From NCBI RefSeq assembly GCF_003334355.1, contig NZ_QOWP01000020.1: a stretch of DNA of 64,000 bases, one strand, 5' to 3'. Origin of the DNA: Escherichia coli. GTDB taxonomy: Bacteria > Pseudomonadota > Gammaproteobacteria > Enterobacterales > Enterobacteriaceae. The position numbers and the translations under genes are program-made. The notes beneath the pieces were generated by a model. That model was not told the origin of the DNA, ran no database searches, and worked only from the letters and a program-made list of their open reading frames with translations. Shown one piece after another: positions 1 to 6,016 of the stretch; position 1 is the first letter of the stretch, and each line of letters starts with the position of its first letter.

Positions 1-46
1 AAGTTTGCCCCCAATTTGCCCCATTTAGTACCAGAGAACTGAAATA

Positions 47-1110: not shown

Positions 1111-2484
1111 TTATTTTAATAACCGCACCCGGCACGTTTTTCCTTTAATCTTCCCGCCCTGTAACTGTTTCCATGCTTTATGAGCAACAGCCTGACGGAC
1201 CGCGACATAGACATGCGCCGGATGCACGGCGATTTTGCCAATATCTGCGCCATCAAGCCCGATATCTCCTGTCAGTGCACCTAATACATCACCCGGGCGC
1301 ATTTTGGCTTTTTTCCCGCCATCGATACACAACGTTGCCATTTCTGCTTCCAGCGTCGCAATGGAACTATTAGCTGGCGGCGTTTGCCAGTTAAGTTTTA
1401 TCTGCAACATGTCAGAAATGATATTGGCCCGCTGTGCTTCTTCCGGAGCACAGAAACTGATCGCCAGACCGCTATTTCCTGCACGAGCTGTACGACCGAT
1501 GCGATGTACATGAACTTCAGGGTCCCACGCCAGCTCAAAGTTCACCACCAGCTCAAGCGATTTAATATCCAGACCACGCGCAGCAACATCAGTCGCGACC
1601 AGTACACGGGCGCTACCGTTAGCAAAACGTACCAGGGTCTGATCGCGATCGCGTTGCTCCAAATCGCCGTGTAATGACAATGCACTTTGCCCTACTTCAT
1701 TCAGCGCGTCGCAGACAGCCTGGCAATCTTTTTTGGTATTGCAAAACACCACGCAAGAGGATGGCTGATGCAAGCTTAATAACCGTTGCAACAGAGGAAT
1801 TTTGCCTTTGCTGGATGTCTCATAAAATTGTTGTTCAATGGGTGGCAAAGCATCTGTTGAGTCAATTTCAATCGCCAAAGGATCGCGTTGCACTCGTCCG
1901 CTGATTGCAGCGATGGCTTCCGGCCAGGTTGCCGAAAACAGAAGCGTCTGTCGAGATGCAGGCGCAAAACGGATGACATCATCAATGGCATCGCTAAATC
2001 CCATATCCAGCATGCGGTCGGCCTCATCCATCACCAGCGTATTCAACGCATCCAGTGATACCGTGCCTTTTTGCAGGTGATCCAGCAAACGCCCCGGCGT
2101 TGCCACGATAATATGCGGCGCATGTTGCAACGAATCACGCTGCATACCGAACGGTTGACCACCGCACAACGTCAAAATTTTGGTATTTGGCAGAAAACGC
2201 GCCAGCCGACGCAATTCACCTGCCACCTGATCCGCCAGTTCACGCGTAGGACACAGCACTAAAGCCTGGGTTTGAAATAGCGACGCATCAATTTGCTGTA
2301 ACAAGCCGAGGCCAAAAGCCGCCGTTTTGCCGCTGCCGGTTTTCGCCTGCACGCGAACATCTTTTCCGGCAAGGATCGCCGGAAGCGCGGCGGCCTGCAC
2401 CGGCGTCATGGTTAAATAACCCAACTCATTAAGGTTCGTGAGTTGGGCGGGAGGCAAAACATTCAGGGTAGAAAAAGCGGTCAC
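1111..2484 (-). CDS. dbpA: ATP-dependent DEAD-box RNA helicase DbpA
   Basis: 457-aa ORF with helicase motifs (AKTGSGKT, DEAD, SAT, HRIGRTAR); matches E. coli DbpA. Confidence 0.95.
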   Translation of the reverse strand: MTAFSTLNVLPPAQLTNLNELGYLTMTPVQAAALPAILAGKDVRVQAKTGSGKTAAFGLGLLQQIDASLFQTQALVLCPTRELADQVAGELRRLARFLPNTKILTLCGGQPFGMQRDSLQHAPHIIVATPGRLLDHLQKGTVSLDALNTLVMDEADRMLDMGFSDAIDDVIRFAPASRQTLLFSATWPEAIAAISGRVQRDPLAIEIDSTDALPPIEQQFYETSSKGKIPLLQRLLSLHQPSSCVVFCNTKKDCQAVCDALNEVGQSALSLHGDLEQRDRDQTLVRFANGSARVLVATDVAARGLDIKSLELVVNFELAWDPEVHVHRIGRTARAGNSGLAISFCAPEEAQRANIISDMLQIKLNWQTPPANSSIATLEAEMATLCIDGGKKAKMRPGDVLGALTGDIGLDGADIGKIAVHPAHVYVAVRQAVAHKAWKQLQGGKIKGKTCRVRLLK

Positions 2485-2513
2485 AATCTATTCTCGTGGT
2501 CATCGACGCAAAG

Positions 2514-2687
2514 TTAGCAGGCGCGTATCCTCGCAGATCTACGCTCACGATGCGACAATTTAATCGGTTCTTCATCGGGTGGTGGGTCAGGCATGGGTTG
2601 CGGGCGAGGGATCGGATCGGGCACTGGAACAGGATCGCCAGGAATCGGTTCAGGGACAGGAATTTGCAAATAAATAAGTGTCGTCAT
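2514..2687 (-). CDS. candidate small proline-rich protein (57 aa) upstream of dbpA
   Basis: My own translation of the minus strand: ATG at 2687 preceded by agaggg Shine-Dalgarno, giving MTTLIYLQIPVPEPIPGDPVPVPDPIPRPQPMPDPPPDEEPIKLSHRERRSARIRAC, stop at 2514-2516. Below the 60-aa cut-off of the ORF track. Confidence 0.4.
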   Translation of the reverse strand: MTTLIYLQIPVPEPIPGDPVPVPDPIPRPQPMPDPPPDEEPIKLSHRERRSARIRAC

Positions 2688-2961
2688 ATTTCCCTCTGGT
2701 CATTGGGTGGACTCTTAAAGGGTAGACGCTGATAAATAACAGGCAAAAAAAAGCCGACTCATCAAAGTCGGCGTCGTACGAATCAATTGTGCTATGCAGT
2801 AATTCAAAAAAGGAAGTAAGACAATATGGAGCGCAACGCCCATCGCTTGACGTTGCATTCACCTGCAAGAGAGATATTGCCCTGAATGGGTAGAGAGTTT
2901 ATTGACTTCGCTCAAACTTTGCGGCGTTTTTGTATACAGACAGCCGGAAAAATTGCTTTTG

Positions 2962-3966
<1,005 letters not shown>

Positions 3967-4199
3967 TTATTTTGTAGTCTAGCCTTCTGGCCCTGTTACG
4001 CAACATCTCATCACCCCATTACCCTGAAATGATTAATAAAATTCTGTCTAAATTGAATACAAAAAGCAAAATGCTTTTCCGTATACAAACCGTGTGAAGT
4101 GTTAAATAGCGTCTATCATTATCAGAATTATCTGATCATATGACGTGGCTTTTTTGCGATCGGATAGCAACAAAAATTGATAAAAATAACGGGATCTCA

Positions 4200-5432
4200 A
4201 TGATTACGCACAACTTCAATACCCTGGACTTACTCACCAGTCCTGTCTGGATCGTTTCGCCCTTTGAGGAACAGTTAATTTATGCCAATAGCGCGGCGAA
4301 ACTGTTGATGCAAGACCTCACGTTTAGTCAGCTACGAACCGGACCCTATTCCGTCTCCTCACAAAAAGAACTGCCGAAATACCTCTCCGATCTGCAAAAC
4401 CAACACGATATTATCGAAATCCTCACTGTTCAGCGTAAAGAAGAGGAAACAGCATTGAGCTGTCGGCTTGTTTTGCGAAAGCTGACAGAAACAGAACCGG
4501 TGATTATTTTCGAAGGTATCGAAGCGCCGGCAACGCTGGGTTTAAAAGCCAGTCGCTCGGCAAATTATCAGCGCAAAAAACAAGGTTTTTATGCGCGCTT
4601 TTTTCTGACTAACTCTGCACCAATGTTGTTGATTGACCCGTCACGAGATGGACAAATCGTCGATGCTAACCTCGCCGCGCTCAATTTCTATGGTTATAAC
4701 CATGAAACGATGTGCCAGAAACATACCTGGGAAATAAATATGCTCGGGCGTCGCGTCATGCCTATCATGCATGAAATCTCGCATTTACCCGGTGGTCATA
4801 AACCTTTGAATTTTGTTCATAAACTGGCGGATGGTTCGACTGGTCATGTGCAGACCTATGCCGGACCGATTGAAATTTATGGCGACAAGCTCATGTTATG
4901 TATTGTGCATGATATTACTGAGCAAAAACGGCTGGAGGAGCAGCTGGAACATGCTGCTCACCATGACGCGATGACCGGATTACTGAATCGGCGACAGTTT
5001 TATCACATTACGGAACCAGGCCAAATGCAGCATCTCGCCATCGCTCAGGATTACAGCTTGTTGCTCATCGACACCGATCGTTTTAAACACATTAACGATC
5101 TCTATGGGCATTCTAAAGGTGATGAGGTGTTATGCGCCCTCGCCCGCACCCTCGAAAGTTGCGCTCGCAAAGGCGATTTGGTGTTTCGTTGGGGAGGCGA
5201 AGAGTTTGTCTTATTGCTACCAAGAACCCCACTGGATACCGCGCTTTCGCTGGCTGAAACTATCCGCGTAAGCGTGGCAAAAGTGAGTATTTCGGGCTTA
5301 CCACGCTTTACCGTCAGCATTGGTGTGGCGCATCACGAAGGAAATGAAAGCATCGATGAACTGTTTAAACGCGTTGATGATGCTTTGTATCGGGCGAAAA
5401 ATGATGGACGCAACCGCGTGCTGGCGGCATAA
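4200..5432 (+). CDS. dgcM: diguanylate cyclase DgcM (PAS-GGDEF)
   Basis: ORF 4140..5432; likely start is the ATG at 4200 (MITHNFNTLDL...); GGEEF motif present (RWGGEEFVLLL). Confidence 0.9.
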   Translation: MITHNFNTLDLLTSPVWIVSPFEEQLIYANSAAKLLMQDLTFSQLRTGPYSVSSQKELPKYLSDLQNQHDIIEILTVQRKEEETALSCRLVLRKLTETEPVIIFEGIEAPATLGLKASRSANYQRKKQGFYARFFLTNSAPMLLIDPSRDGQIVDANLAALNFYGYNHETMCQKHTWEINMLGRRVMPIMHEISHLPGGHKPLNFVHKLADGSTGHVQTYAGPIEIYGDKLMLCIVHDITEQKRLEEQLEHAAHHDAMTGLLNRRQFYHITEPGQMQHLAIAQDYSLLLIDTDRFKHINDLYGHSKGDEVLCALARTLESCARKGDLVFRWGGEEFVLLLPRTPLDTALSLAETIRVSVAKVSISGLPRFTVSIGVAHHEGNESIDELFKRVDDALYRAKNDGRNRVLAA

Positions 5433-5452
5433 GCCGCGGATGCGTCTCGAGA

Positions 5453-6016
5453 TCAACGACTGCGCTTAGCGTGGCGCTCCCAGTTTTCTTGCTTCGCCTG
5501 CGCCGTTTTACGTAGTGCGACGTAACACGCCCCGCTGCCGCCATGATGCGGTAGCGCGGTGCAATATGCCTGAACATCATCAAATTCGGTCAGCCAGCGC
5601 GCCACATAGCTGCGGACAATATTGGCATGCGATTTATCATCCCGCCCTTTACCATGAATAATCAGCACGTTACGCAAACCATCCGCCAGGGCTTGTTGAA
5701 TAAAACTGAACACCATTTTGCGGCACTCTTCCACCGGCTGGCGCAAAAGATTCAGGCTCGCCTGTTGCGGATATTTACCACTGCGCAGCTTATCCAGCAC
5801 CCCATGTTGCAACCCTTCCCGCCGAAACTCCAGCGGCTGACTTAGTGGGATGATGTCGAGAAATCCGGTGGTGAGGAAATTATCAAGCTGCAGCGTGTCG
5901 ATACGCTGCGGCGCACGTTGGTTACGCGTTGGATGCCAGTGGACATCGGTAGCACGTTTCAGCGGCTGGACATCTTCCATGGCGTCAAGAAACAGCGATT
6001 TGTCGTCAAGGTTCAT
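5453..6016 (-). CDS. smrA: Smr-domain DNA endonuclease SmrA
   Basis: 187-aa ORF with C-terminal Smr domain (LIIHGKGR...); matches E. coli SmrA/YdaL. Confidence 0.88.
   Translation of the reverse strand: MNLDDKSLFLDAMEDVQPLKRATDVHWHPTRNQRAPQRIDTLQLDNFLTTGFLDIIPLSQPLEFRREGLQHGVLDKLRSGKYPQQASLNLLRQPVEECRKMVFSFIQQALADGLRNVLIIHGKGRDDKSHANIVRSYVARWLTEFDDVQAYCTALPHHGGSGACYVALRKTAQAKQENWERHAKRSR

Follow-up and report, generated by a model that had tools for sequence, protein, structure and literature searches.

The proline-rich ynaL gene upstream of Escherichia coli dbpA: very likely a genuine small-protein gene, with a tail that overlaps the dbpA promoter

The 57-codon proline-rich reading frame lying directly upstream of dbpA in Escherichia coli is, very likely, ynaL, a genuine small-protein gene that had been annotated before, and not a leader of dbpA. 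The gene itself is known: the K-12 reference annotation, RefSeq and Pfam all include it, and a paper of 2018 names it. The one useful addition of this analysis is that overlap with the mapped promoter of dbpA explains the conservation of the tail of the gene. In this way, the part of ynaL visible to selection as protein, an acidic polyproline core, is now separated from the tail, which is a by-product of the dbpA promoter. The residual value of the gene lies in its tight linkage to the gene of a ribosome-assembly helicase and to that of an anaerobic sRNA.

Results

Location and identity of ynaL

The window, i.e., the whole stretch of E. coli DNA analyzed here (64,000 nucleotides of contig NZ_QOWP01000020.1), was scanned for ORFs, and the scan confirms on the minus strand, at 2687..2514, a frame of 57 codons followed by TAA and starting with ATG. 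Translation of this frame gives a product of 57 aa, MTTLIYLQIPVPEPIPGDPVPVPDPIPRPQPMPDPPPDEEPIKLSHRERRSARIRAC. Its stop ends at 2514 and the GTG of dbpA is at 2484, leaving a gap of 29 nt between the two genes. The features of the locus are as follows.

2514..2687, minus strand: ynaL coding sequence (b4743), from the ORF call, RefSeq annotation, Pfam PF23677 and SPA-tag detection
2692..2697, minus strand: Shine-Dalgarno sequence AGAGGG of ynaL, at -10..-5 from the ATG
1111..2484, minus strand: dbpA coding sequence with GTG start, the downstream neighbor, encoding a 23S rRNA-specific DEAD-box helicase (ORF scan, annotation)
2749..2866, minus strand: gene of the FnrS sRNA, the upstream neighbor of ynaL (Rfam RF01796, 134.8 bits)
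2496..2732, plus strand: antisense ORF of 78 aa that fully overlaps ynaL (ORF scan)

The length of the frame is by itself weak evidence for a gene, since 52 ORFs of at least 40 aa, most of them spurious, occur within the initial 6 kb of the window. The argument that ynaL is no chance frame comes from its conservation: 68 of 80 related species have it immediately upstream of dbpA. As to its identity, both the 57 aa and the fnrS/dbpA setting are identical to those of E. coli K-12 YnaL (b4743, PF23677), so that we are dealing with the same gene. It is annotated in MG1655 as b4743 / YP_009518775.1, at 1409308-1409481, between fnrS (b4699) and dbpA (b1343), and in BL21 as WP_001296046.1. The region is matched, with 95–100% identity, in 5393 of 5426 complete E. 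coli genomes, where the feature under the matches is annotated as ‘ynaL: proline-rich small protein YnaL’. Pfam PF23677 (‘Protein YnaL-like’) aligns with residues 1-57 along the entire model (1-57 of 57; i-Evalue 2.2e-40, score 136.8), and the homologues in relatives across the Enterobacteriaceae are named YnaL as well.

The protein was detected by VanOrsdel et al. (2018) by immunoblot after chromosomal SPA tagging, and the YnaL sequence printed there is identical to the 57 aa of the window (PMC6001520). The tag used for this detection was C-terminal and can stabilize a peptide. The authors also report a positive signal for ynaL in a tetracycline ribosome-profiling screen and point out that the gene adjoins dbpA, with which it may form an operon (PMC6001520). 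This discovery screen is the sole paper naming ynaL found in our search of the literature for its function in E. coli.

A preliminary description of this stretch of DNA had presented the frame exactly as it is found here, i.e., as a 57-codon proline-rich ORF on the minus strand with an agaggg ribosome-binding site, ending about 30 nt before dbpA. It also took the ORF as unlisted, in which it was mistaken, since RefSeq annotates ynaL. Its remark that the Pro-X-Pro region is unusual for E. coli small proteins is a fair one, and its suggestion of a genuine small protein is correct, yet already established (b4743, PF23677, SPA-tag immunoblot).

Constraint on the reading frame

The comparative set consisted of the dbpA locus from 80 species-representative genomes of Enterobacteriaceae. 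The 68 species with ynaL directly upstream of dbpA belong to Escherichia, Citrobacter, Salmonella, Enterobacter, Leclercia, Lelliottia, Klebsiella, Raoultella, Kosakonia, Superficieibacter, Pseudocitrobacter and other genera. The fnrS gene lies directly upstream of ynaL in all of the 67 loci having enough flank, and a GGAGG-type Shine-Dalgarno sequence together with the ATG is kept in 67 of the 68 species. The gene is absent from 12 of the 80 genomes. Five of them, forming the Kluyvera group, keep fnrS and the 3′ DNA of ynaL and have lost the proline-rich part, whilst neither fnrS nor ynaL is present in Cedecea, Dryocola, Atlantibacter, Siccibacter and one ‘Enterobacter sp.’.

Individual sequences show other changes. 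In one E. coli strain, OSUCMP42NDM (NZ_CP087578.1), an IS1 is inserted near codon 7 of ynaL (1788..2653 of its locus sequence). In-frame length variants are also found, such as a deletion of 11 aa in one locus (L004) and a duplication of 10 aa in a Salmonella protein (P0053), which indicates that the X-Pro repeat tract of YnaL expands and contracts.

Variation among the species has the periodicity of a coding sequence, with an entropy of 1.14 at third, 0.21 at first and 0.12 at second codon positions. The dN/dS of the ynaL reading frame is 0.086, and that of the other two sense frames and of two of the three antisense frames exceeds 1. The sense frame is open over the span of ynaL in 55 of the 68 species, the other 13 being early-stop forms. 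Constraint is not uniform along the protein, where two segments and a motif can be told apart upstream of the tail.

2637..2687, minus strand: YnaL codons 1-17, N-terminal, mostly hydrophobic, hypervariable in sequence and length (alignment, per-species N-termini)
2568..2636, minus strand: YnaL codons 18-40, acidic polyproline core DPVPVPDPIPRPQPMPDPPPDEE, constrained at the protein level (dN/dS, AlphaFold)
2574..2588, minus strand: DPPPD, codons 34-38, a potential EF-P-dependent pause motif (sequence)

The first 15–20 residues drift freely in both sequence and length. The core (23 codons, DPVPxPDPIPRPQPMPDPPPDEE), on the other hand, has over the 68 species a saturated dS of 1.41 and a dN of 0.09, i.e., a dN/dS of 0.065, to be compared with 0.051 for codons 2-101 of dbpA in the same genomes. 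This saturation of synonymous changes at so low a dN, together with the frame-specificity of dN/dS, shows that the proline-rich core is protein-coding and under strong purifying selection. Conservation at the codon level in related genomes, which the preliminary description had proposed as a check, is thus borne out.

Two other explanations of this pattern have to be considered. One is that the true gene is the antisense ORF of 78 aa and that the low dN/dS merely reflects that frame. The ORF does exist in the window, and one antisense frame shares its wobble positions with ynaL and has a dN/dS of 0.113; however, stops interrupt the three antisense frames in all but 24, 12 and 0 of the 68 species, and the Shine-Dalgarno sequence, the ATG, the annotation and the tagging experiment all belong to the minus-strand frame. 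The antisense ORF is open in the window because the antisense of proline codons (NGG) holds no stops, and the chance of its being the real gene is negligible. The other explanation is that ynaL is a non-functional by-product, kept open only through its proline codons and the DNA signals that overlap it (dbpA promoter, fnrS flank). Conservation of the last third of the gene as DNA and not as protein, lack of constraint on the N-terminus, the IS1 insertion in one E. coli strain and the loss in the Kluyvera group would all agree with this. Even so, we regard it as highly improbable, as a by-product does not account for a core dS of 1.41 against a dN of 0.09, for a strong Shine-Dalgarno sequence and ATG in 67 of the 68 species, for the detection of the protein (PMC6001520) or for the occurrence of the ORF in nearly all complete E. 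coli genomes (5391 of 5426).

The tail of ynaL and the dbpA promoter

Downstream of the core, conservation takes a different form, being confined to two blocks of DNA next to the start of dbpA transcription.

2552..2567, minus strand: Block 1, CCGATTAAATTGTCGC, codons P41-H46, centered at about -41.5 from the dbpA transcription start (DNA-level conservation)
2520..2540, minus strand: Block 2, AGATCTGCGAGGATACGCGCC, codons R50-A56 and the first base of the Cys57 codon (DNA-level conservation)
2518, minus strand: transcription start of dbpA, a G which is the middle base of the ynaL Cys57 codon, with the 5′ UTR at 2518..2485 (Kim et al. 2012, PMC3415461)

Both blocks are almost invariant among species, block 1 as CCGATTAAAnTGTCGC (2567..2552) and block 2 as AGATCTG[C/A]GAGGATACGCGCC (2540..2520), and they are separated by a spacer variable in sequence and fixed in length. 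Synonymous differences, with a background of about 0.6, fall to a pS of 0.007 in the SARIRAC codons, and the PIK(L/M)S codons have a pS of 0.073 over the 68 species. Block 2 holds a TG and a -10-like GAGGAT (2532..2527), as well as a GC-rich discriminator.

Published data place the start of dbpA transcription within the Cys57 codon of ynaL. Table S1 of Kim et al. (2012) lists a single start for dbpA, at NC_000913.2 1407501 (+), with 126 reads and a 5′ UTR of 34 nt, and gives its -50..+1 sequence as ACCGATTAAATTGTCGCATCGTGAGCGTAGATCTGCGAGGATACGCGCCTG, ending in ...GAGGATACGCGCCTG (PMC3415461). Its position in the window, 2518, comes from our own arithmetic on the published position. This start lies 9 nt after the GAGGAT hexamer, from which it is separated by an 8-nt GC-rich discriminator, ACGCGCCT. 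With the start inside the Cys57 codon, blocks 1 and 2 make up the promoter region of dbpA, and the RSARIRAC tail of YnaL is conserved only because the same DNA doubles as that promoter region.

The fate of the blocks where the protein changes is in keeping with this. YnaL is cut short in 12 species by a stop codon (TAG, TAA or TGA) right after ...SHR or ...SR, at 57–63 nt before dbpA, and block 2 is unchanged in them; these early stops have arisen more than once. The five Kluyvera-group loci, which have no proline-rich ORF, retain an unchanged block 2 and a nearly unchanged block 1, and in the 100–150 nt or so upstream of their dbpA the Shine-Dalgarno sequence, the ATG and the proline-rich part of ynaL are all absent. 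The group represents a natural deletion of ynaL with the dbpA signals intact. Genera in which ynaL was never present have, at the same place upstream of dbpA, ATGACC-N17-TAG[A/C][A/C]T with a TG before the hexamer. In Dryocola this site (ATGACC-17-TAGAAT with the TG) is flagged as a sigma-70 promoter by the promoter scan, whereas the homologous site of Cedecea is not flagged.

In E. coli itself the elements are far from consensus, the GAGGAT being a poor -10 and the -35-like TTGTCG of block 1 lying 20 bp away from it. A consensus promoter scan of 2300..3100 flagged nothing, so the call of a dbpA promoter rests on the mapped start and on the homology with Dryocola and not on consensus. A distance of 20 bp is unusual for a sigma-70 promoter and may point to an activator site or an UP-like element. 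Promoters of the rrnB P1 type, with their long GC-rich discriminator, offer a partial parallel: the dbpA promoter has a -10, an 8-nt GC-rich discriminator and a start at the 9th nt, a geometry that would suit the ribosome-assembly factor it serves; its -10 (GAGGAT) is, however, poor and it has no properly spaced -35. By this analogy, the long GC-rich discriminator suggests that dbpA may be under growth-rate or stringent control.

Two candidate roles for the conserved DNA were tried and rejected. Pairing of FnrS to block 1 amounts, in a hand check, to about 6 contiguous pairs only, and mimicry of 23S helix 92, the target of DbpA, by a conserved block gave no convincing similarity in a comparison by eye with the rRNA sequence.

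The overlap has a practical consequence, namely that mutating or tagging codons 41-57 of ynaL also hits transcription signals of dbpA.

Discussion

Is ynaL a leader peptide of dbpA?

The preliminary description offered, as an alternative to a small protein, a proline-rich stalling leader that regulates dbpA. In its most explicit form this would be a leader acting in cis, where a pause at DPPPD alters dbpA expression on transcripts that read through from ynaL, by translational coupling or Rho polarity, and where what is sensed is EF-P, prolyl-tRNA or the performance of the peptidyl-transferase center. Several facts make the idea attractive. D-PPP-D is among the strongest EF-P-dependent motifs, and YnaL has such a conserved PPP/XPPX motif, with the PPP of DPPPD intact in 64 of the 68 species. 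No terminator separates ynaL from dbpA, which makes read-through transcripts possible, and in 49 of the 68 species the ynaL stop is found 23–30 nt before the start of dbpA. DbpA, in addition, acts on 23S rRNA at the peptidyl-transferase center, and this target makes its pairing with a proline-rich ORF suggestive.

The proposal nevertheless finds no support in the data, and it is very improbable that ynaL acts as a leader peptide of dbpA, in the first place because the main dbpA transcript starts in its last sense codon (126 reads; PMC3415461). With its start inside Cys57, the main dbpA mRNA lacks the ynaL ORF, which is hence outside the 5′ leader of that transcript, contrary to what is seen in attenuator-type leaders such as mgtL/mgtP or trpL. 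Depending on the lineage, 14 to 63 nt separate the ynaL stop from dbpA, with the stop falling upstream of the promoter block in 12 species; PPP is replaced in four of the 68 species (by PSP in E. albertii and two Citrobacter species, and by PPQ in one species of the C. amalonaticus group); and the Kluyvera group lost the proline-rich ORF with the block upstream of dbpA unchanged. The 23 conserved residues, moreover, comprise D, E, R, Q and I as well as the prolines, and a stable tagged YnaL accumulates in the cell (PMC6001520).

Nor did we find the RNA structures through which such leaders act. There is no terminator or attenuator on the minus strand of 2687..2484, and the fold of 2745..2440 is less stable than that of shuffled controls (z +1.91), with no alternative hairpins. 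Folding of an 18-species alignment gave, around the conserved blocks, invariant pairs and no covarying ones, and an Rfam search of the ynaL-dbpA region at E<=1 returned no match. A cis-acting stalling leader is consequently quite unlikely, and the small chance that we leave it is owed to the possibility of read-through transcripts and to the D-PPP-D motif.

Comparison with known regulatory ORFs leads to the same assessment. Attenuation by mgtL and mgtP, the leaders of Salmonella mgtA and mgtCBR, senses EF-P or prolyl-tRNA. Like them, ynaL is short, rich in proline codons and upstream of a gene on the same strand. They, however, sit inside the 5′ leader of the gene they regulate and control alternative stem-loops, whereas the dbpA transcription start comes after ynaL; furthermore, the ynaL region has no alternative structures or terminator, its ORF is three times longer and its protein is detectable. 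With SecM and the RAPP/RGPP-type arrest peptides ApdA and ApcA (PMC12992588, PMC10987492), ynaL shares the small upstream ORF, conservation at the amino-acid level and consecutive prolines. It differs from them in that YnaL contains no RAPP, RGPP or GIRAGP, that its PPP is 20 residues away from the C-terminus and that the hairpin sequestering the ribosome-binding site in arrest-peptide systems is absent. The resemblance of ‘RIRAC’ in the tail to ‘IRAGP’ of SecM was also looked at and rejected, the tail being conserved as DNA and dispensable in 12 of the 68 species.

What kind of protein is YnaL?

The reading best supported by the results is that YnaL is probably a free small protein with an acidic polyproline rod as its functional element. 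AlphaFold (alignment of 28 sequences) predicts neither helix nor strand, with a pTM of 0.23 and a pLDDT of 90–92 at residues 21-40, and this model describes the core as an extended, non-globular polyproline segment. By hand count, the net charge is about -5 for the core and about +5 for the hitch-hiking tail. From these properties we infer that YnaL would act as a free non-globular peptide of extended, polyproline-II-like shape, the acidic core of which would bind a partner. The partner may be ribosome-related or linked to DbpA, which is a guess from the conserved linkage only.

The closest likeness in composition is to the proline-rich spacer of TonB (PF16031 TonB_N; NF008084), which similarly is an acidic (X-Pro)n tract expected to form a polyproline-II rod. 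YnaL, unlike TonB, has no membrane anchor and no C-terminal domain. Kinship of the two was rejected, the similarity being compositional only: NCBIfam gives 20.8 bits where the cut-off is 315, with the proline-rich stretch alone aligning, and the Pfam E-value is 0.75.

A functional tie between YnaL and the ribosome, be it by sensing in cis or by binding of the peptide, we consider unlikely. It could take two forms. In cis, the polyproline core may report the performance of EF-P or of the peptidyl-transferase center on fnrS/ynaL transcripts reading through into dbpA, whilst in trans the YnaL peptide may bind immature 50S particles or DbpA itself.

Transcription of ynaL and its surroundings

In the window, zntB lies further upstream of fnrS, and dbpA and ttcA follow downstream of ynaL. 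The FnrS gene ends in an intrinsic terminator (stem at 2772..2753 followed by a T run), after which there is one candidate promoter for ynaL.

2719..2746, minus strand: TTGCCT-16-TACCCT, candidate ynaL promoter after the FnrS terminator (alignment: fixed spacing, conserved CTACCCT)

This candidate is weak, as it matches 7 of 12 consensus positions and was not flagged by the scan. The table of Kim et al. (2012) lists no start for ynaL, the fnrS start (41 reads) being the only one upstream of that of dbpA (PMC3415461). Since no separate start is listed, transcripts that read through the FnrS terminator may serve to express ynaL; its mRNA would probably come either from such read-through or from a weak unmapped promoter. 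If ynaL turned out to have no promoter of its own, fnrS and ynaL would together provide an sRNA and a small protein under the shared control of FNR.

Some minor observations concern the neighboring genes. Codons 13-22 of dbpA (2419..2448, minus strand) could form a 9-bp hairpin, GCCCAACTC/GAGTTGGGT, with compensatory changes of CAA..TTG to CAG..CTG and of ATC..GAT. Over 72 distinct sequences, 89.7% of the cells are paired, as against 87.3% in shuffles, with 21 double-change cells and many mismatches, so that on sequence grounds the case for this hairpin in early dbpA is a weak one. Another tiny upstream ORF near ynaL, of 15 codons, is located at 3959..4006 on the minus strand, 13 nt before the start of zntB, and is named ‘protein YnaN’ in RefSeq. 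At the other end, the window begins 46 nt before the start of ttcA (1..46), at the edge of the intR integration site of BL21, in which the intR integrase follows ttcA (5406..5501 of the BL21 locus sequence).
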